DNA of 64,000 bases from Verrucomicrobiia bacterium (GTDB taxonomy: Bacteria; Verrucomicrobiota; Verrucomicrobiia; Limisphaerales; UBA1319). Within the stretch, counting starts at the first letter, position 1, and each line of letters opens with the position of its first letter. The notes beneath the pieces are model-generated. The model searched no databases. It saw only the letters and a list, made by a program, of their open reading frames with translations, and was not told the origin of the DNA. The position numbers were made by a program, and so were the translations under genes. Shown here piece after piece: positions 1,103 to 56,397 of this stretch. The stretch covers positions 2,624,001-2,688,000 of the forward strand of contig OY760937.1 of assembly GCA_963664225.1 (NCBI GenBank). The letters are read 5' to 3'.

Positions 1103-4100
1103 TCAAGGCAGGCGCGTCACGCGGTAGAACCGGGCCTGTCCCGCAGGCGGCAGGTCCGTGCAGGCCGCGCTGGCATTGGTGGCCGTAACGACGGAGCCCA
1201 GATCGGTCCAGGCGCCCGGCGTGAGCTGATCGGCAGCCTGCACCTGGTATCGGCCACCTGCCTGGGAGGCCCAGCTCAGGGCGACGTTTTGTCCGGGACG
1301 GGCGGCAATGCTCAAAATGCGCAATTCGACGGGCGGATCGACGATGAGGAAACTCAGGGTCGTAGTGGCGCTGCGAACCGGCAGGCCATTGTCGATTACG
1401 CGGATTACGGCCGGATAAAGCCCCGCAGGCAGCGAGACTGGCGGTGTCCATGTAAAGATGCCGCTGACGGGATCGACGACTGCTCCCGCCGGAGCGCCCG
1501 GAGCGAGGCTGAAGCGGAGGATTTGGCCGGGATCGGGATCGGTGGCGACGATGGGGTATTCCAACGGTTCACCGCGAACGATCTCCTGTAGGCCGCTGTA
1601 ATCGCTGATGACCGGCGGCTGGTTTGTGCCCGCAACAGGGACAATGCTTTGATCGAAGTTAATGCCGAAGCCAGAAAGGCGCAGGACGAGACTGGCGGCG
1701 TTGGTCCCAGGGAGGCACCAGAAGCTCAAGGTGTAGGGCGCGCCGGTCGTTAATCCGGGGACCATGGTTTGAAAGATGGAGGAGCCTCTGGTGGTTCCGC
1801 CGACGGAATCGACCACATGCAGGCTCGAATGACCCGAGTGAGCCACGTTGGTGACGATGGATGAATCGATGAGATTGGGCGAGACGGTCCATGGCCCGGT
1901 CAAGTCGGATTCGAAATCGCCGTTGACCAGAAGGTTGGCTCCCACTCCGGCCTCGCTCCCGCTGACGATTTGGAGGTCGTCAAGGTAGAGTTCACCGGGG
2001 GCGGTCAGATAGATATACAATACGGAACTGCTGCCCGTGCCTGTGTAGGTGAAGTAAGTCCAGGCGGGAAGGTCGTTAACAATGACCGTGAATGCCCGCT
2101 GGTCGGACAGAGCCGGAGAGCCGTTGTCGGTGACGCGCACCAGGATTGTGTTGGTGCCCGGGATTTGATCGGGGGCGGGCGTCCAGTGAAGCGCGCCCGT
2201 GGTGGCATCGAGGGTCATGCCTGCAGGGGCGCCGGACACCAACTCATATTGGAGCTTGTTGGCCGGAACATCCGCGTCCGAGGCGGTGACATCAAGGTTG
2301 AGGGCCTGGCCGCGCGACAGGCTTTGGTCGGGAATGGAATCGAGAACGGGCGCGGTGTTGACCTCGCGAACCACGACCAGAAAGGTGCGCGCGTCACTGC
2401 GGGGAGGCAGGCCATTGTCGGCCACACGAACGGTTACGGTGTTGGTGTATGGACCCTGGATTTCATTGGGTATCCAGCGCAGAACTCCGGTGACGGGATC
2501 GATGGCCATTCCGGCGGGCGAGCCACCATCGAGGCTGTAGGCGAGCGTCTGACCGGGATCGGCATCGGTCGCCGACACCACCAGGCGCAGGATGGTGATT
2601 TCGTCCATGTATTGGTCGGCAATGGGAGCGAGCACGGGCGCGTGATTCAATTTGCTGGCGATGACACGGAAGACCTGGCTGGCGCTGAGCGGAGGCTGGC
2701 CGTTGTCAGCTACACGCACGGTGATGGTATTTGTGGAGGGAATATCGCTGGCGGCGGGAGTCCAGGTCAGAAGACCGGTGGAGGAATCGATCCGCATCGC
2801 GGCAGGCGCGCCAGCATCCAGACCGAACGTGAGCCCCTGGGCCGGGAGGTCGTCATCGGTGACGACGACCTGGAAGGAAAGGGTTTCCCCTTCCATGACA
2901 CTCAAATCGGCCGAGGGCTGGATGCGCGGCGCGGTGTTCACCTCATTCACGATGACATGAAAGGTGCGAACATCGCTCATCGCGGGGGCGCCATTGTCGG
3001 TGACGCGCACGGTGATGTCGTAGGCGCCCGGTCCTTGAATCTCTGAAGGGGTCCACGAAAAGGCCCCGGTCACGGCGTCCAGGGAAGCGCCCGGCGGTTT
3101 GGCGTCCAATGAGTACGTGAGCGTTTGCGCGGGCCGGTCGGCGTCCGTGGCCGCGAGGTTCAGGCTCAGGGTCTGACCTTCGCTGATGGTTTGATCGACA
3201 ATGGAGGGGAGCACCGGCGGAGTGTTGACCTCGTTGACCGTGACGGTAACGCGCTTTTGAGCGGTCAACGGCGGAGCGCCATCATCGGTCGCCCGAACGC
3301 TGATCGAATAAACGCCCGGCCCCTGGAGTTCCGAAGGGGTCCAGGAAAAAACACCGGTGACCGGGTCGATCATCGCTCCTACAGGCGCGCTGCCCAAGCT
3401 GAAGGTCAGGGTCTGGTTGGTGTCCAGATCGGATGCCGTGGCCGTGAATTTGAGAGATTCAAGTTCGTTGACGACGGCGTTCGAGAGGACCGTGAGGACG
3501 GGAGGACGATTGCTCGACGAAACGCGGTTGGGCGCGTCGGGTGTGGGATTCTCCATGAAGAAGAATGGTTCGGCGGCGCCATCGGGCCAACGGCCCTGGC
3601 TGACATCGTTTGTTTGCGGCTCGAAGACGACCATGTCCACCAGGCCGCCGTTCGGATCGAACAGCCCAATGGATTCGCCCGACTGGCTGAGCTTGAAGTT
3701 TGTGTGGATCGCCCGATTGGTGGGGCTATTTTGATTCGCGTCGTTATCGGCCCAGACCAGCAGGAAATCCCCGGCCGCGATCGTGGTGCCCGTAGGGATG
3801 ACGAACTGGGTGGTGTTGGTGGGGGTATCGGTCAACGTATAGCCGCCGAGATCCACGATTTCAGACCCGGCATTGTAGAGCTCGAACCAATCGTCGTAGG
3901 GATTACTGGTTAACGGATTGTTCGCGGGATCGGCCAGGGTGCGGGTATTGGAGGCCATCCATTCGTTGATGAACACCTGGATGGGCTGGAAGGCCGGATT
4001 GTTCGTCGCCCCCGGGGTTGGAAATTGGAACCCCTGGTGGCTGAAGGGCTGACCGTCGGGATAGTCGCCATAGGAACGGCCGGCGCCGACGGTGCGATAA

Positions 4101-7100
4101 TTGAGGTAATCGCAAATCACGGGTTGCTGCTGGCTAGTGAACTGGGATAGAACGACAGTTCCGGCTGCGGGAGCGATTCGGAAACCGGCATGGATTTCGT
4201 TTGCGGTGGTTTCCTGGGTATTGCCGTCGGCCCAGACGAGCAAGAAGGTGTTTCCACCCATCGTCGTCCCGGCTGGAAACGACCATTGGCCGGGGTTGGA
4301 GAAATTGGTGCCCAAGTACAGGCCGGCAAGGCTGACCGCATTTGTGCCGGGGTTGTATAGCTCAATCCATGGTTCGCGGTGGCCCGCGGCGTCCACAGGC
4401 CCAGCCACATTCTCGGGCTGAACTTCATTGATCCACACCGGAGGGAATGCAGGCAGGGAGGCGCGCACGGAGTTGACCACGCCGGGGGTGAACCTGACTG
4501 CGGCATTGGTGGCGGTGCAGGCCCAATTTCCAACGCGCGACCGGTCCCGGGCGGGATCGATCAATTGAAGCGAAGGTCCCTGACCATCGGCGACCACCGG
4601 CCAGGGGGCCGAGTCGTGGTATTCGACCTCATCGACGACAAAATCCGAAGAGGGGTCGGCACCGGGAATCACCAGGCGCAGATGCTCGCCGCCGTGGCTC
4701 AACTGGCCCGTGTAACCGGCGGCCACCGGGATGGACGCGCCATAGGCCGATGCGAATTGCACCGCGTCCTGCGCCAAAACCAGATACCGGCCCGGCTCGA
4801 TCAGCAGGCCGTCCGGGAAGGTGAAGCCCAGGCCGTCAAACCGCCAGCGCGAAAGGTCGAAGGTGGTGGTGGTGGAACGATTATAGAGCTCCACATATTC
4901 CGCGCCCGTGATCACCGGGTGATACATGATTTCGTTGATGACCAGGTTATCCTGCGGCAAATCCGCGACGCCGGTGTAATTGATTGTGAGGCTGGCCGTG
5001 GCGCCTGTGAAGAGAGCGCCGGAACGATCGTAACCACGGACCACCAGGGGGTTGGCCCCCGCCTGCAAGGCGACGCGCGCCGACCAGGCGGTTGCCGTGG
5101 TCCAGGTCAGTGGATAGGCCACTCCATTGATCGTGATCTGTCGAACGTCCAGGGGGGCCAGGCCTGTGATGGTGACCAAACCGGCATTGGTGGAAAAGTT
5201 CTGACCGTTGTTGATCGAGAGTCTGAACCCGACCAGGTTGTTGTTCAGGACCGTCAGCAGGTATTGCCGACGCTGTTCGAGCCGGGTTTTGGCATCCGTG
5301 GTATCGCCGACGGCGATGCCGTTGGCCAGAAGGCCCGCGTAAGTGCCGTCGAGAATGGTGCCCACGGTTTTAGGCAGCATGGGGCCGGTGGCGGCATCCT
5401 GTATGGCCTGCAAATAAATCCGGCGGAAGGACGGTGTGGAATAAATGCGGGTCATGACGGGATCGCTGACATCGAAAACATCCTGGTTGGGATCCTGCAA
5501 CAGGAAGTCGATATCCCAGGGGAGCATGATCCATTTACCGGCGGTCGGCTTGTAGGTGTACATGTTCTTGCCCCGGCGGAAACCGTAGCTGTCCCAGTTG
5601 ACCATGATATGTTCGACGGCGAAGACGCGCATCCACTGGTTGACATCCACCAGGGAATCGAAGTTGCGAACGAACGCGTTGTAATCGACGGTGTTGGCAG
5701 CATCCACCAGATTGAAAACGCTTTGGTAATCGTTGGCCGAACTGTTCACGGCCCGTTTTTTCCAGTGCCACCGATAGCGGGCGGTTTTTTTGACACCGCC
5801 GGTGGTGGTGAAGTTTTCCATGGTGGCCGCGGTGTCCCCGTTGTCGCGGGCGAATCCGCTGCCCGCATCGTCGAACTCGAAACCATCGTCCAATTTATAG
5901 AGGTCCCCGTTATTATCCTTGGGAGCGACTTCGTCGATCACATCGCCGCCGGGTTGGAGGCAGTCCTCGTAGATCGTGCCGCGGCGGTTGCCATTGACGA
6001 AAAGATTGATGTAGCGGCGGTAACACCCGTGGGTACCCAATTGCTCCGCCAGCCAGAAGGCGATGTGCTCGAGCTGTCCGGAGACATCGACTTCGAATTT
6101 TGGCCAATCGAGGGTAAACCCGGTCGTGTTCAGGCAGGGATTATCCTCGGGGAATTCAAAGACGTAACCACAGGCGCCGCCAATCGGACCGGAATAACCT
6201 GGGGAAATGAAGGGGCTGCCGCCGTAGAGGGAGCCGACATTATAAATCACGCGGCTGTCGCCATAGACAAAGGTGGCGTCGATGGGCGCGTTATTGAGTT
6301 TTTCACGGTTGGTCCAGAGTTGAACGGCTTTTTGGGTCAGCCACAAATGGTAATTGCCCAAGTTACCGATGGGCTTGGGTTCCGCGAAGCGCACGAGGCA
6401 CTCACGCGCGGGAGCTCCGGCGGGGAAGACGGATTGGAGCGGTGTGGCGGCGGCATCGGTGGCCTGGATGTAAAAGGCGTCGAGCAGGGTGCTGGATTGC
6501 ACAGGAATGACGGCGCTGTAATAGCCCGCCCCGTTGTAAGCCATATTCACGATGGTGTAATTGGTGGCGGGGTCCACACGGTATTTGAGGACCAGGCTGG
6601 CCAGCCCATCGGGGTCGGACACGCGGGCCCGGACGGTGACGTTCTGGCCGAGAGTGGGCAGCACGGGGCTGTGGGAGACATCGAAAATGGCGGGGCCGGA
6701 ATTGGGCGCGGCGCAGGAGTTGCGCGCTCCGGGGGTTCCGGGATTGGGGGGAACCACGAGACTGCCGGAGGCTTCGAGCCAGTTGCCACGCAAACGCAGC
6801 AGCACCTCGGGCCAGCCTTTGAGCCAGCGCACTTTGGCGCGGAGGGTGGCGGTGTCGCCGGGATTGAGTCCGGTCTGAAGGGCGACCCGGATGCGGTTGG
6901 CGCCGGGATCGCCGCGACCTTCGGCGCGAACATGCAGGCATCCGCTGTTGTTGACGCCGCCGGTGGGTTGCCATGTTGTGGCGCCATGGTTGCCCTGGGC
7001 AACCCAGCCTGCCATGCCGGAAGTGAACGAGGGATTGGCAACCAGATTGACGCCCTGTTTGAGGACCTCGACATCGTCCACGAGGCATTCCCCGGCATCC

Positions 7101-9754
7101 TGAAGAAGAACCTGAAGCTGGGGACCGTAGGCATTGACACCGAGATCGAGCACGCCGGTCCATTCCACGGTGGTCCAGGCGCTTTTGGCTGTTTCATCGC
7201 TCGCGGCCCAATTTACGCCGCGCTGGCGATCGGCGCGCGGGTCGATCAATTCGAGGCTGCTTCCGCCGCCATTGGCCCACTCCGGCCAGGCCCCGCCTTT
7301 TTCGAAATTGACTTCGTCCACCACGACATCGATCCAGTTGGTGGTGACCACCGCGCTGGCGTTGGTGGAAAGAACCGGTTCCGGACGCGCCAGGGCAATG
7401 TGGCGGCCTTTGGCCAGGGAACCCTGAAAATCGCCAAAGGTGATCGCCGGGGTAAGGTTGGGGTAGTTGGTCAGGAAATGGGTGACGTTGCGGCAGACCA
7501 CGAAATATCCGCCCGCAGGGATCGCGCTGCCGGCCGGGAAGGTGTATTTGAGGCCATCCGCAAAGGTCCAACCGCTCAAATCGACTGCGGTCTGGCCCTG
7601 GTTGTAAAGCTCCACATACTGGTCGTTGTCGTCCTGCGTCACGGGCTTATACATGATCTCATTGATCACGATGGGCTGGAACAGGCGGTCGGCATTATTA
7701 CTTCCGGGCGTCGGGGCGGCCAGGGCGCGAAACTCCGGCGCACCGTCGGGTTGCCGTCCCATGGAAATCCCCAGCGCCTGCGGCCCGAACCGTTCGGCCT
7801 GCAGAACCCGCGTTCCGGTCGGGTTGATAAAGTATATGGTCTCGCCGGAGGAACTGAGGCCAAAACCCAACTGCGCTTCGCTGAAGGTAAGAAAGCCCAG
7901 GGCGGGAATCACCGTTCCCGCAGGAAGGACGCATTTATTCGTGGCCGGATTATCGGTCAGGACACAGCCGGCAATATCCACCGCCTGGGTGGAATAATTA
8001 TAAAGCTCGATGAAATCGGTCTGGCTGGCGGTGGTATGGGCGAGAAATTCGTTGATGAGCACCGTGCGATAAATGGGATCGGCGGCAGGATCGGCTACTC
8101 CCGGCGAACCACCGACATTCTCACTGGCCGCCCAGGCCATGGGATTGCCCTCACCGTAGCTGGGCCGGGCCAGGACAAGAGAGTGCCCCGCCCCATCCGC
8201 CGAGGCCGGGAACGGCGGCTGGCTGGTGTATGAGGCATCGTAAATGAGATCGCCATTGGGTTTTACCAGGCGGACCTTGCCCGACGCGTTGGAGAGGTTG
8301 TTGGTGAATCCGCCCAGCACATTGGCGATGCCATAAACGGCCTTGATGTCGGCTGGAACCGGCGCCACGACGAGGAACGCGCGTTTGGCGAGGATGGTGT
8401 TTGTGGGGAAGGTGTAATTGATGTCGCCCGTGATCTGCCAGCCGCCGATGTCCTCGCTCCAATCGAAGGTGTTGAAGATTTCGATGTATTCGAGGTTGCG
8501 GGCATCGGCGCGCGCGGCGGGATGATACATGATCTCTGAAACGACCACGCCCCAGCGGCGATTGGAGGGCCCCAACGGTTCCGAGTTCCGGGTGACCAGA
8601 CTGATGGGCAGCGGGACGACGGATTGTTGAAAGGTCGCTTTGGATCCGGCGGCAATGGTGTTGGGCGAGGACGCGCGGTCGCGGATTCCGCTGACGGTCA
8701 GGGTATAAAGAAGGCCGCTCGCGATGGGCGTGGTCTGGAGAACCACCGAAGAGGTGTCGCCGGCGAATTGGGCGCTTACCACGCCGGCCCCATTATCCAG
8801 GACATAATGCGAAGCATCCAGAGCGGTGACGGGATCGACCGGTTCGGTGAACACCACGGTGACCGTGGTGCTTCCGCCCGGGATGGAAATAGCGCTGATG
8901 GCCGGCGGAGTGGCATCCGGCAACACGGAAAGCACCGCTTCACTGCTGTTGGTAAAACCCTGGGCGTTGGAGACAACACAACTGAATCGGCGGCCATTGT
9001 CCGCCATGGTGACCGGTCCAAAGGTCAGGGTGCTGTTGGTGGCTCCGGGAAAGATTGTGCCATTCGTGCTCCATTGATAAACGGCGGCAAAGCCCTGGCT
9101 GACCTGGAGACTGAAACTGGCCAGCCCCCCTTCCGCGACCTTGACGTCCTGGGGTTGGGTCGTGATCTGGGGTGCGCCAAGGCCATACACCAGAAGCCTG
9201 GAGGCGGGAATGGGTTCTTCCATGGTGCCATCAGGCAATTGCCAGCGCACCGCCAGGTAATCATCGCCGCCGCCCTCCTTCATCAGGGCCTCGATATAAT
9301 ACTTCTTTCCGGCTGTGAGCGTCACAGGTGCGGATTGCTGGTTGGCCTCGACAAACCAGGAGCGCGATGGCGTCCAGCCATTAACCCAGGCGATTGCGCT
9401 TCGGGTGGCCGGGGTGGCGTCCGTGCCCAAATACAGACCGGAGGCGTCGTCGCTCGAAATCCAGAAAACATAATTGCCGGTGGTGGGCGGGATGATCAGG
9501 GCGCGCATGCGCTGTCCGTAGGCTTCCGCGATATTGGCCGGCGCCTCGAAATAGTCGGAGACCACGTTCTGGCTGGAGGGGGAATTTGGAAAGGCGGGAT
9601 TGTTGGTCAGATCGGCCAACGTGCCGCCATCGATGCCCTCATAGACCTCCCGCAACAGGCCGTTCATGGGGGTCTGGGCGCTGGCTGTCTGGGAGCCGAC
9701 CAGCAAGGTGGTGGCACAGGCAATGGAACTGAGAATTGATTGAATGACTCGCAT
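1103..9754 (-). CDS. 2883-aa secreted multidomain protein: PA14, Ig-like, 6 lamin-tail domains, CBM-like domains, CotH kinase-like domain, 6 cadherin/He_PIG repeats, C-terminal sorting-like domain
   Basis: Signal peptide ending ASA|Q; PA14 motif YVFWISSDDASGL; LTD starts (SEIMYHP, INEFLAH, INEIMYKP, INEIMYHP, INEVQPEN, INEWMASN); CotH motifs YKLDD, NWDSY, PWDIDF; repeats beginning NxxPVL with DPVTGVFSWTP; ends RFYRVTRLP. Confidence 0.9.
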   Translation of the reverse strand: MRVIQSILSSIACATTLLVGSQTASAQTPMNGLLREVYEGIDGGTLADLTNNPAFPNSPSSQNVVSDYFEAPANIAEAYGQRMRALIIPPTTGNYVFWISSDDASGLYLGTDATPATRSAIAWVNGWTPSRSWFVEANQQSAPVTLTAGKKYYIEALMKEGGGDDYLAVRWQLPDGTMEEPIPASRLLVYGLGAPQITTQPQDVKVAEGGLASFSLQVSQGFAAVYQWSTNGTIFPGATNSTLTFGPVTMADNGRRFSCVVSNAQGFTNSSEAVLSVLPDATPPAISAISIPGGSTTVTVVFTEPVDPVTALDASHYVLDNGAGVVSAQFAGDTSSVVLQTTPIASGLLYTLTVSGIRDRASSPNTIAAGSKATFQQSVVPLPISLVTRNSEPLGPSNRRWGVVVSEIMYHPAARADARNLEYIEIFNTFDWSEDIGGWQITGDINYTFPTNTILAKRAFLVVAPVPADIKAVYGIANVLGGFTNNLSNASGKVRLVKPNGDLIYDASYTSQPPFPASADGAGHSLVLARPSYGEGNPMAWAASENVGGSPGVADPAADPIYRTVLINEFLAHTTASQTDFIELYNYSTQAVDIAGCVLTDNPATNKCVLPAGTVIPALGFLTFSEAQLGFGLSSSGETIYFINPTGTRVLQAERFGPQALGISMGRQPDGAPEFRALAAPTPGSNNADRLFQPIVINEIMYKPVTQDDNDQYVELYNQGQTAVDLSGWTFADGLKYTFPAGSAIPAGGYFVVCRNVTHFLTNYPNLTPAITFGDFQGSLAKGRHIALARPEPVLSTNASAVVTTNWIDVVVDEVNFEKGGAWPEWANGGGSSLELIDPRADRQRGVNWAASDETAKSAWTTVEWTGVLDLGVNAYGPQLQVLLQDAGECLVDDVEVLKQGVNLVANPSFTSGMAGWVAQGNHGATTWQPTGGVNNSGCLHVRAEGRGDPGANRIRVALQTGLNPGDTATLRAKVRWLKGWPEVLLRLRGNWLEASGSLVVPPNPGTPGARNSCAAPNSGPAIFDVSHSPVLPTLGQNVTVRARVSDPDGLASLVLKYRVDPATNYTIVNMAYNGAGYYSAVIPVQSSTLLDAFYIQATDAAATPLQSVFPAGAPARECLVRFAEPKPIGNLGNYHLWLTQKAVQLWTNREKLNNAPIDATFVYGDSRVIYNVGSLYGGSPFISPGYSGPIGGACGYVFEFPEDNPCLNTTGFTLDWPKFEVDVSGQLEHIAFWLAEQLGTHGCYRRYINLFVNGNRRGTIYEDCLQPGGDVIDEVAPKDNNGDLYKLDDGFEFDDAGSGFARDNGDTAATMENFTTTGGVKKTARYRWHWKKRAVNSSANDYQSVFNLVDAANTVDYNAFVRNFDSLVDVNQWMRVFAVEHIMVNWDSYGFRRGKNMYTYKPTAGKWIMLPWDIDFLLQDPNQDVFDVSDPVMTRIYSTPSFRRIYLQAIQDAATGPMLPKTVGTILDGTYAGLLANGIAVGDTTDAKTRLEQRRQYLLTVLNNNLVGFRLSINNGQNFSTNAGLVTITGLAPLDVRQITINGVAYPLTWTTATAWSARVALQAGANPLVVRGYDRSGALFTGATASLTINYTGVADLPQDNLVINEIMYHPVITGAEYVELYNRSTTTTFDLSRWRFDGLGFTFPDGLLIEPGRYLVLAQDAVQFASAYGASIPVAAGYTGQLSHGGEHLRLVIPGADPSSDFVVDEVEYHDSAPWPVVADGQGPSLQLIDPARDRSRVGNWACTATNAAVRFTPGVVNSVRASLPAFPPVWINEVQPENVAGPVDAAGHREPWIELYNPGTNAVSLAGLYLGTNFSNPGQWSFPAGTTMGGNTFLLVWADGNTQETTANEIHAGFRIAPAAGTVVLSQFTSQQQPVICDYLNYRTVGAGRSYGDYPDGQPFSHQGFQFPTPGATNNPAFQPIQVFINEWMASNTRTLADPANNPLTSNPYDDWFELYNAGSEIVDLGGYTLTDTPTNTTQFVIPTGTTIAAGDFLLVWADNDANQNSPTNRAIHTNFKLSQSGESIGLFDPNGGLVDMVVFEPQTNDVSQGRWPDGAAEPFFFMENPTPDAPNRVSSSNRPPVLTVLSNAVVNELESLKFTATASDLDTNQTLTFSLGSAPVGAMIDPVTGVFSWTPSELQGPGVYSISVRATDDGAPPLTAQKRVTVTVNEVNTPPVLPSIVDQTISEGQTLSLNLAATDADRPAQTLTYSLDAKPPGASLDAVTGAFSWTPSEIQGPGAYDITVRVTDNGAPAMSDVRTFHVIVNEVNTAPRIQPSADLSVMEGETLSFQVVVTDDDLPAQGLTFGLDAGAPAAMRIDSSTGLLTWTPAASDIPSTNTITVRVADNGQPPLSASQVFRVIASKLNHAPVLAPIADQYMDEITILRLVVSATDADPGQTLAYSLDGGSPAGMAIDPVTGVLRWIPNEIQGPYTNTVTVRVADNGLPPRSDARTFLVVVREVNTAPVLDSIPDQSLSRGQALNLDVTASDADVPANKLQYELVSGAPAGMTLDATTGALHWTPAPDQIPGTNTILVRVTDNGSPALSDQRAFTVIVNDLPAWTYFTYTGTGSSSVLYIYLTAPGELYLDDLQIVSGSEAGVGANLLVNGDFESDLTGPWTVSPNLIDSSIVTNVAHSGHSSLHVVDSVGGTTRGSSIFQTMVPGLTTGAPYTLSFWCLPGTNAASLVLRLSGFGINFDQSIVPVAGTNQPPVISDYSGLQEIVRGEPLEYPIVATDPDPGQILRFSLAPGAPAGAVVDPVSGIFTWTPPVSLPAGLYPAVIRVIDNGLPVRSATTTLSFLIVDPPVELRILSIAARPGQNVALSWASQAGGRYQVQAADQLTPGAWTDLGSVVTATNASAACTDLPPAGQARFYRVTRLP

Positions 9755-17962: not shown

Positions 17963-18930
17963 TCAAGGAGCCTGCCGAGCCTGGTAAAACCGGTTGCCAG
18001 CGGCTGTGTTCGTGTCGGTGAACGAGACGCTGCCGGTCAAATTGGTGATCGTTTCCAGGCTTGTCCAATTGGCCGACGGAAGCGCGCTATTGGTGCAGGC
18101 CAGAATCTCCCATCGCCCGGGCTCGCTTTCGAGAGTGAATCGAAACTGGCCGTTGGTCACGCCCCAGGCCGTCAAGACGGGAGCGGGCACGGTTTCCAAC
18201 CGGACGTTATCCAGGTCCCAATAGCCGCCATTGAGATCGAAACCCACTGTGGAGGCCAGTTCAATGCCGATGTTCTGACCGGCCCACGCGTCGCCCGTCC
18301 GAACGAAGGGAGTCCGGGCTTGAAAATCGACAAAATGAGTGTTGTTGGGAAAGAGCTCCGCAGTGTTTGTGATCGTCGTTGCGGCAACCGTTACTTTGTT
18401 ATTCCCGGCGTCGCGATAATAAAGGCTGATCTGGAGCGGGACACCATTGGACATTCCGCCGCCACCGCCAATGAGTCCGACCTTTAGCGCGTAGGCATTG
18501 CCGACTTCAAAGCGCGCGTTGAATTCGTGCGTTGGAACGGAATTGGTTCCCGAAACCGAGTTGTAATCCTGAAAAATGGAAACGTCCGGCTGCGCAAACA
18601 AAAAGGCCCCCTGCCTGCCCTCAATGTTGTCGATGTGGGTGGGGCTGCCGTTGGTGGTATTCAGGAACTGACCGAGAAACTGGTCCCACGGAAACCCGCC
18701 GCCACCCATATACCACGCGGGTTCGGGGGCCTTCTGCCATGCGTCCATGGCTGGATCCGCGTAGGACGTTTCCGGGGATTCGAACGATCCATTGGGCACA
18801 ACAACGGTTCCCGCTCGAACGGAACCCGTGACTGCCGCCAGGGCGATGAGCCCGGCCAGAAGGGTGAACAAAGACCGGTTGGAGCCGCGCGCATCGGCGG
18901 CCAGATTGCTTTTGAATTCAGGTGTCTGCA
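17963..18930 (-). CDS. Secreted CBM-like jelly-roll protein with C-terminal sorting-like domain (start uncertain, 18930-19006)
   Basis: Signal peptide ending VRA|G; VPNGSFESP...WDLDNVRL frame typical of CBM4/9-like domains; tail ending SFTDTNTAAGNRFYQARQAP. Confidence 0.8.
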
Positions 18931-19133
18931 TTTTATTGAAATGCCTTAACATAATTGAAGTAATAATATGCACAAACGTGCATATCAGGAGGCGTGGCGT
19001 CAACATTCCCGTTTAAAAGGTTTTGCATTTTCGCATTTTTTCATTGGATGAACGAACTGCTGCCGGTCCGTTGCATTGTGGGGCGGGAGGCTTATGTTGA
19101 GAAAGGAAACCCCGAAACGATAAGGAGTCATTT

Positions 19134-54959: not shown

Positions 54960-55517
54960 ATGAAAACGATGAACCGATTATTCCTCAGCGCGGCCGCGGC
55001 TTTTGCCTTGCTCGCCTCCATTTCCACTCAGGCGGCCGTGGACATGTTTCTGGACATGGGCAAAGACATACCCGGGGAATCCACCGATAAAGCGCATCCC
55101 AACACCGTGGATGTCCTGGCCTGGAGCTGGGGAATGTCCAACTCAGGCACGACTCACCTTGGCGGAGGCGCGGGTGCGGGCAAGGCGAGCTTCCAGGACT
55201 TGAGCCTCACGAAATATGTGGACAAGGCCAGTCCCAATCTCATGTTGTACTGCGCCAACGGAAAGCATTTCGCAACCGCCACCTTGATCGTTCGCAAAGC
55301 TGGCGCAGTACCGGTCGAATACATCAAAATCACGATGTCGGAAGTCATGGTAACCAGCGTTTCGACGGGGGGATCCGGCGGGGAGGATCGTCTGACAGAG
55401 AACATCACCTTGAATTTTGCAAAAGTTGATTTCAGTTATGTGCCCGTGGATCCCAAGGGAGGTGCCGGTACGGCCGTCGAGATGAAGTGGGATATCGCGG
55501 CCAACATCGCGCAATGA
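54960..55517 (+). CDS. hcp: Hcp (T6SS tube protein family) with N-terminal Sec signal peptide
   Basis: MKTMNRLFLSAAAAFALLASISTQA|AVDMFL..IPGESTDKAH...VLAWSWGMS...LTKYVDKASPNL...GKH...VRKAG...VSTGGSGGEDRLTENITLNFAKV; closely follows P. aeruginosa Hcp1 motifs. Confidence 0.93.
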   Translation: MKTMNRLFLSAAAAFALLASISTQAAVDMFLDMGKDIPGESTDKAHPNTVDVLAWSWGMSNSGTTHLGGGAGAGKASFQDLSLTKYVDKASPNLMLYCANGKHFATATLIVRKAGAVPVEYIKITMSEVMVTSVSTGGSGGEDRLTENITLNFAKVDFSYVPVDPKGGAGTAVEMKWDIAANIAQ

Positions 55518-55581: not shown

Positions 55582-56397
55582 ATGTCAACATCAAGAACTG
55601 CAATCCTCGCCTTGGGCTTGTTATTGGCCATTGGCCAGAGCGGCTCGCTGCATGCGGCCATCGACATGTTCCTCAAGGTTGGGAACATCAAAGGGGAGTC
55701 CACAGATCCCGCCCACCCGCAGGAAATCAACGTGCTGGCCTGGTCCTGGGGAATGTCCCGTCCCGCTCCTCCCATTCCCGGAGGAGGAACTGCCATCAGC
55801 AAGGTTTCACTGAGCAGCCTGTCACTGACAAAATACGTGGACTCGTCGAGCGCGCCGCTGATGAAATACTGCGCCACTGGAAAAACACTGTCCAACGCGC
55901 AACTGACATTGCGTACGGCGGGCGATCAACCGTTGGAGTTCTGCACCATTACCATGACGAATGTCATGATCGTCGGCATTGCATCCGGCGGTTCGGGCGG
56001 TGAGGATCGCCTGACTGAGAACATCACCCTCGACTTTGAGACGCTCAACGTCATCTACCATCCGGTCGCCAACACCACCCTTGAACCTCGAATCGGTTTC
56101 GATTGGAGCGTCGTAGCGGACACGGGGTTGGCCAGTGTCGTCCCCAATCCCTTGCCCGCTCCGGTTCCCAGCCTGGTCTCAACCCTTTCCCATACCAATG
56201 ACACTCCCTTCGCGCAATTGACCTGGGTGAGCACCGCAGGCGCCATCTACCGGATCTGGGCTGCCGACAGCGTTGAGTCTGGTTATCAGGTTTACGGAGG
56301 AGATATCCCATCCGCAGGAGACGGGACCACTTCCATGACCCTTCCGGCGATCCTGGGACGCAAGTTTTTCAGGATCGAAACGGTCTCTGTTAAATGA
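55582..56397 (+). CDS. hcp: Second signal-peptide Hcp fused to a Pro-rich linker and a C-terminal sorting-like domain
   Basis: MSTSRTAILALGLLLAIGQSGSLHA|AIDMFLKVGNIKGESTD...LAWSWGMS...GGSGGEDRLTENITLDF...PNPLPAPVP...LTWVSTAGAIYRIWAA...RKFFRIE. Confidence 0.9.
   Translation: MSTSRTAILALGLLLAIGQSGSLHAAIDMFLKVGNIKGESTDPAHPQEINVLAWSWGMSRPAPPIPGGGTAISKVSLSSLSLTKYVDSSSAPLMKYCATGKTLSNAQLTLRTAGDQPLEFCTITMTNVMIVGIASGGSGGEDRLTENITLDFETLNVIYHPVANTTLEPRIGFDWSVVADTGLASVVPNPLPAPVPSLVSTLSHTNDTPFAQLTWVSTAGAIYRIWAADSVESGYQVYGGDIPSAGDGTTSMTLPAILGRKFFRIETVSVK

Follow-up and report, generated by a model that had tools for sequence, protein, structure and literature searches.

The tube protein Hcp, in a genome or in a culture supernatant, is the usual hallmark of a type VI secretion system (T6SS). 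The window studied here (the whole stretch of DNA analyzed, 64,000 nucleotides) holds two tandem Hcp genes on its plus strand, Hcp-A upstream and Hcp-B downstream, and Hcp-B has a C-terminal tail. What is this tail, and where would an Hcp ring that bears it go?

Hcp-A (54960..55517, plus strand, 185 aa) consists of a predicted Sec signal peptide (about residues 1-25, ending between STQA and AVDMF, by eye and alignment) and an Hcp domain (PF05638 at residues 35-160, E = 3.2e-39), without a tail. It is 51% identical to Hcp-B and 53-64% identical to ten signal-less Hcps. Hcp-B (55582..56397, plus strand, 271 aa) is made up of a predicted Sec signal peptide (55582..55656, residues 1-25, ending between SLHA and AIDMF, again by eye and alignment), the tube-protein domain (55657..56112, residues 26-177), the Pro-rich linker PNPLPAPVP (56143..56169, residues 188-196), and a 75-aa tail (56170..56394, residues 197-271) with the C-terminal letters RKFFRIETVSVK; near its end lies the family motif F-F/Y-R (56365..56373). 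In both proteins the leader runs basic-hydrophobic-AxA and is placed before the usual Hcp start, and we predict that both leaders are Sec signal peptides. Most of 30 aligned homologues have an Hcp-B-like leader of 25-28 residues, and Ala25 is at least 90% conserved.

The tube-protein domain of Hcp-B matched PF05638 at residues 30-157 (E = 3.8e-32; 111.7 bits, cut-off 23.5) and fell below the cut-off of TIGR03344 (37.6 versus 58.9 bits), while in Foldseek its structure model matched Pseudomonas aeruginosa Hcp1 (1y12) with E = 3e-15 and 43% identity. Several Hcp-B homologues have a DxDxDG repeat of the Ca-binding type in place of the Pro-rich linker. An earlier note on this DNA had described an Hcp followed by a Pro linker and a tail, an architecture that was borne out. 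The feature it had placed at 56110..56397 does hold linker and tail, but its first 30 bases still encode the end of the Hcp fold, and the tail is 75 aa rather than about 70 and starts before LTWV.

The gene directly downstream of Hcp-B encodes a GH92 glycosidase, and the neighbors of the pair are glycoside hydrolases (GH92, GH9, GH36-like, and GH39 by Pfam). We also noted a third Hcp gene in this genome (G000:C1:3672152-3673720), of a different subfamily (RQHKP type) and with a predicted signal peptide. The gene directly after it encodes a protein of 305 aa in which GWI-type repeats and a DxDxDG repeat are combined with the tail; the same pair is present in genome G001.

The window encodes two further tail-bearing proteins, both on the minus strand. 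One is a giant surface protein of 2,883 aa (1103-9754), in which PA14, six LTD stretches, a CotH kinase-like domain, and Ig repeats precede a C-terminal tail (1106..1345); the other is a 347-aa frame (17963..19006). The earlier note had likened the Hcp-B tail to that of the giant protein by eye, and the likeness was confirmed: 17 of 54 residues are identical to the last 85 aa of the giant protein (31%; E = 3e-7 in a single comparison), and profiles of the family recovered the Hcp-B tail with Hcp-B itself left out. A first profile, built from 69 long proteins of the genome, was searched against 20,304 ORF ends and placed the Hcp-B tail at rank 126 (23.4 bits, E = 7e-5); 138 ORF ends scored at E < 1e-3, and the first unrelated match came at rank 151 with E = 0.57. 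Against a second profile, built from 41 non-Hcp tails, it scored 25.6 bits, and the best of 2,000 shuffles reached 16.1. Among the 30 aligned homologues of Hcp-B, every tail scored between 11.8 and 36.5 bits. The union of both profile searches comprises 140 tail proteins in this genome, and the Hcp-B tail almost certainly belongs to this genome-wide family of about 140. The F-Y-R strand of the family holds a near-invariant Arg; Hcp-B has a Tyr at the position where a conserved Trp stands in most members. About 15 proteins genome-wide form a paralogous subfamily with a near-identical tail variant (ALYFQTVPGK...QKRVL...FYRVVLVP), which suggests a recent expansion.

As tallies over kin that are not independent, rather than as tests, the tail is present in 60 of the 61 genomes of the order, mostly in tens of copies each, and in 89 of 201 genomes sampled across the phylum; the genome counts of Hcp and TssC below are of the same kind. 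Known families offered no name for it: 22 tails scanned against Pfam and NCBIfam fell into no family, with zero NCBIfam matches, and sequence searches of the PDB gave none either. Weak sequence matches to a CBM32/discoidin domain (2rv9, E = 2e-5 to 1e-3) found no backing in the fold searches, and we rejected this assignment. A search of the ESM Atlas with the tail returned only unnamed Verrucomicrobiota clusters at 0.89, which serves as a lead only.

The structure model of the tail (pLDDT 89) has six strands. Its best structural matches were FN3 domains; with Z scores of at most 7.2 (Z < 8), these matches are moderate and unspecific. An FN3 domain has seven strands (A-B-E / C'-C-F-G), whereas the tail has six predicted, and the alignments stop before the last strand, about a dozen residues short of the domain end (1ten 807-879; Tencon 1-78 of 94). 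From this model we infer an FN3-like sandwich without strand G, in which the F-Y-R strand with its Arg would form a free edge. The top bacterial fold matches were the cellulosomal FN3 domains 5g56 and 3mpc. The Fn3 domain of Pel3 (PDB 4u49) aligned with Z = 6.5 and an rmsd of 2.7 over 70 residues, a Z score tied with those of unrelated FN3 domains. Foldseek with the tail model returned nothing at E <= 1e-3. The structure prediction envisaged in the earlier note yielded an FN3-like fold, and neither by sequence nor by fold did we find a meaningful toxin or enzyme match.

Next, we examined where the tail sits in 125 proteins of the genome that score at least 18 bits. It is C-terminal in 114 and stands right after the signal peptide in nine; two copies occur in one of the 125. 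A crude signal-peptide rule was positive for 74 of the 114 proteins with a C-terminal tail, compared with 550 of 1,819 background frames, a set that includes spurious ones. A DxDxDG repeat precedes 31 of the 114 C-terminal tails. The domains behind the N-terminal copies (G000:C1: 4921153, 4349432, 4980572, 4981751, 3877253, 3592864, 2089739, 3837665, and 2399501) include FGE-sulfatase-like, DUF3160, multiheme cytochrome, and 3-keto-disaccharide hydrolase domains.

We compared the tail with known C-terminal tags. PEP-CTERM and sortase anchors have a C-terminal membrane helix and a basic cluster, whereas none of the 114 C-terminal tails has such a helix (hydrophobic 19-mer above 1.6). [quoted passage not shown] The T9SS CTD family was not among the matches of the 22 tails (Pfam at E <= 0.1; NCBIfam), nor was its fold among the 50 structural matches listed for the tail. 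The lack of a membrane helix and the nine copies behind signal peptides mean that the tail is not strictly a C-terminal tag of the T9SS/PEP-CTERM type. To that extent the earlier note's reading of the extension as an export or anchoring tag needed amending, while its view of the tail as a shared module other than a toxin gained support. In the available part of PMC13524802, the CTD of an Akkermansia sulfatase is likened to the T9SS CTD from an AF3 model.

We then considered whether this Hcp pair could serve an injection machine. Hcp-B shares its fold and sequence family with the T6SS tube protein Hcp/TssD (PF05638; Hcp1, 1y12), but it has a predicted Sec signal peptide, belongs to a tandem two-gene cassette, and resides in a genome without sheath, baseplate, spike, or PAAR genes. 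TssC, TssB, VgrG, and TssF gave no matches in this one-contig, 96% complete genome, and neither phage sheath nor PAAR was found (PF04984, PF05954, PF05488); the positive controls matched in each case. The phage-type sheath and spike genes that mark an extracellular contractile injection system or tailocin were likewise not found here. All three Hcps of the genome carry predicted signal peptides (by eye and alignment).

Hcp is present in 18 of the 61 genomes of the order and TssC in three. In the three TssC genomes a signal-less Hcp adjoins tssC, and the remaining 15 Hcp genomes, all without TssC, have a signal-peptide Hcp. Eleven of those 15 contain the complete pair of a plain and then an extended Hcp, among unrelated flanking genes; in one more the two halves of the pair lie on different contigs, and in the other three a lone Hcp precedes a tail gene. 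Four single signal-peptide Hcps have a separate tail gene after them. We found no conserved small immunity-like gene downstream of the pair, and the downstream genes vary among relatives. Hcp-B has lost its tail in genome G007, and its tail is weak in G060 (6.5 bits), a genome in which one further match was left aside.

The wider phylum sample added 13 Hcp genomes, with TssC in ten. The three that lack it all have signal-peptide Hcps: G164 has a pair of Hcp-A and tailed Hcp-B, G064 a single Hcp beside a tail gene, and G198 a single Hcp without a tail gene within 1.5 kb. In addition, G141 combines a T6SS with a signal-peptide Hcp that is not linked to it and lies beside a tail gene. In a midpoint-rooted FastTree phylogeny of 58 Hcp domains, the exported Hcps did not fall into one clade; support was low, and we therefore draw no order of events. 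Canonical T6SS loci (tssC-hcp-tagJ-tssE order by eye) were seen in G090, G165, and G189, three of the 16 genomes of one tail-negative genus. At G219:C2 and G122:C1, T6SS loci hold a tandem array of three or four hcp genes, divergent and signal-less.

A parallel to the pair came from other lineages. Among 148 new representatives recovered by profile search, 35 contain exactly six Hcp copies and 17 a single Hcp plus tail; two- and three-copy forms are also present. The six-copy chains (P0123-P0264) have a median period of 171 aa, and within the five chains measured the copies are 32-83% identical. A Pfam scan of 30 representatives found RTX repeats in six, dockerin-type repeats in four, and Ig/cadherin stalks in many. 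The LE-R-LL pattern, which we take to be a Planctomycete-type leader motif, was found by pattern search in 16 of 38 chains with at least five copies, and PF07595 gave one match below cut-off among the multi-copy chains; the lineages of these chains were deduced from such motifs and not from labels. Six copies make up one ring, and they occur here in secreted-adhesin architectures, so the Hcp ring would be used as exported cargo with the lineage's own tag. On sequence evidence, then, Hcp rings are exported in several ways. The cassette of Hcp-A and tailed Hcp-B fits the six-copy plan, with several untagged subunits and one tagged, and no other independent evidence speaks as strongly as this parallel for the tail being a sorting module. 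In two other representatives (P0188 and P0208), a signal peptide, one Hcp, and a cadherin/Ig stalk precede another kind of C-terminal module, which ends in Q.RL and may be a second subtype of the tail.

Collectively, the missing T6SS needle, the export signals, and the shared tail suggest that the Hcp ring is surface cargo and not a weapon; it likely goes to the cell surface as ordinary cargo. We propose that Hcp-A and Hcp-B form a self-contained cassette, exported via Sec and assembled into mixed six-membered rings that the tail on Hcp-B directs to the surface or medium, an explanation as a whole for which we judge the chances evenly divided. Its parts differ in strength. Entry of both proteins into the periplasm via Sec is very probable, judging from the predicted signal peptides. 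There they would assemble into the mixed rings, and the Hcp-B tail, as the phylum's common sorting module, would bring the ring beyond the outer membrane, to the cell surface or the medium; that the tail sorts its cargo beyond the periplasm is, in our view, fairly probable. The free edge of the tail might be read by a secretin-based machine of the type II or type IV pilus-like kind, and the untagged Hcp-A would travel with the tagged Hcp-B, as in the single chains of six Hcps and one export tag. Outside the cell the ring could act as a ligand-binding or adhesive head. An Hcp ring is presumably about 85-90 Å wide, near or above the bore of a secretin, so a whole ring may not pass; assembly might instead follow export, which would leave the passage of Hcp-A unexplained. 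The surface display proposed in the earlier note thus gains from the predicted signal peptide, the lack of a T6SS, and the comparative data for an exported ring, all read from sequence; the ring may be held on the surface or released.

The export route was sought among the secretins, of which this genome has seven matches. A PilQ-like secretin is directly followed by one to three tail genes in 26 of 39 relatives (a count made after one downstream region, of 5 bases in G041, had been dropped), a synteny that may go back to one ancestral event. In G149, of another class, each of the four accessory secretin loci has tail proteins after it (13-43 bits). Accessory secretin operons thus often stand directly before tail genes, which indicates a type II-like route. 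We rejected a general coupling of the core Amuc_1098 operon to tail genes: of 20 genomes, only one, and weakly, has a tail gene after its conserved Amuc_1098-type secretin. Nor could the order's split-secretin T2SS be upheld as a universal route, for this query had no close orthologue outside the order (best E about 1e-36). No PilQ-like orthologue was found at E <= 1e-60 in 16 of the 61 genomes, including the tail-rich G009 and G030. Two of the seven secretins of this genome lie within 2 kb of a tail gene (16% at random) and five within 10 kb (41% at random), which does not clearly exceed chance proximity. PorV is absent from the genome (positive control matched), and SprA gave no match in a search in which no positive control matched.

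In this genome, an Amuc_1101-1098-like operon is followed by a cluster of tail proteins. We also observed a pilM-O-P-Q-like operon (G000:C1:1932458-1947705), followed 18 bases later by three tail-bearing NHL-repeat proteins of about 1,000-1,200 aa, a possible dedicated adhesin or cargo set; it is this arrangement that recurs in the 26 of 39 relatives.

A precedent for such a route may lie in the T2SS substrates Pel3 and PelI, in which, according to the available part of PMC7949064, the Fn3 domain or a loop carries a secretion determinant. As in Hcp-B, an Fn3-type accessory domain is there borne by a Sec-exported protein; however, Pel3 has a seven-stranded domain that contributes to a composite signal specific to the protein, whereas the six-stranded tail recurs on hundreds of unrelated proteins. 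From the gene order, we regard a secretin-based export route for the tail proteins as a tentative proposal, with chances somewhat short of even.

In the leading alternative, the tail would instead serve for docking or anchoring, much as a dockerin or SLH domain does: it would bind a surface glycan or scaffold, and Hcp-B would tether the ring while export takes some other route. Its occurrence at either end of the mature protein favors this, since position independence suits an anchor, and the cellulosomal origin of its top bacterial fold matches, the dockerin-type repeats on several six-copy chains, and the DxDxDG repeats ahead of many tails point the same way. Nevertheless, no scaffold or cohesin-like partner was identified, the tail is nearly always present in a single copy per protein, and tail cargo repeatedly follows accessory secretin operons. 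We consider an anchor acting in place of an export tag rather unlikely; anchoring and export roles can coexist.

Alternatively, the ring might never leave the periplasm and act there, docked by the Hcp-B tail, as chaperone or conduit for the machine that exports the tail proteins. T6SS Hcp rings bind cargo in their lumen, and a tail is found at nearly all signal-peptide Hcp loci. However, signal-peptide Hcp is lacking in 45 of the 60 tail-positive genomes, so Hcp is not a required part of tail export and we rejected a need for it; the genes that flank the pair are not secretion genes, and RTX-tagged six-copy chains would bypass the periplasm. We therefore hold a periplasmic helper to be improbable.

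The remaining candidate, in which the tail is a toxin and Hcp-B either an effector of the Hcp-ET type or what is left of a T6SS or extracellular contractile injection system, is already largely refuted and highly improbable: it draws on the identity of Hcp-A to signal-less Hcps and on the toxicity of known Hcp extensions, yet this genome has no sheath, VgrG, TssF, or PAAR, the signal peptides are conserved across families, the FN3-like tail is common to about 140 non-toxin proteins without a toxin or enzyme match, and no conserved small downstream gene offers itself as an immunity gene. The earlier note's premise of toxins as the known Hcp extensions is in line with the available part of PMC5471719, which describes the Hcp-ET proteins of Enterobacteriaceae (Ma et al., 2017) as Hcps with a toxic C-terminal extension. 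Hcp-B has a C-terminal extension in common with them, but theirs is a variable toxin, whereas that of Hcp-B is a conserved FN3-like module on about 140 proteins, with neither a T6SS nor an immunity gene seen.

Returning to export of the ring as cargo, we suggest, more speculatively, that the tail is the address label of a phylum-wide Verrucomicrobiota secretion route, its incomplete FN3 edge being completed by a component of the secretin machine, and that Hcp rings have repeatedly left the T6SS as extracellular binding heads, as a tagged and untagged pair here and as six-copy chains via type I or Planctomycete-type routes elsewhere. The natural six-copy chains illustrate a further role of the tail-tube fold, outside the cell. 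The signal-peptide Hcp class is annotated as 'type VI secretion system tube protein' although the machine is missing, and T6SS calls in environmental genomes can accordingly be wrong. The tail itself marks up to about 140 proteins per genome in an abundant polysaccharide-degrading phylum, by an export route undescribed in the open-access literature; the 271-aa Hcp-tail protein and its untagged sister offer a compact test case for the route of the tail proteins. Open-access full texts contained no description of signal-peptide Hcps, six-copy Hcp chains, or the tail, and the available part of PMC3482391 has nothing on signal-peptide Hcps or the tail.

Lastly, we noted nine loci at which secretin domains lie within open frames of 3,400-5,000 aa, a length well beyond that of ordinary secretins (G010:C16, G050:C5, G047:C147, G008:C77, G007:C1, G009:C18, G038:C8, G016:C162, and G048:C3).
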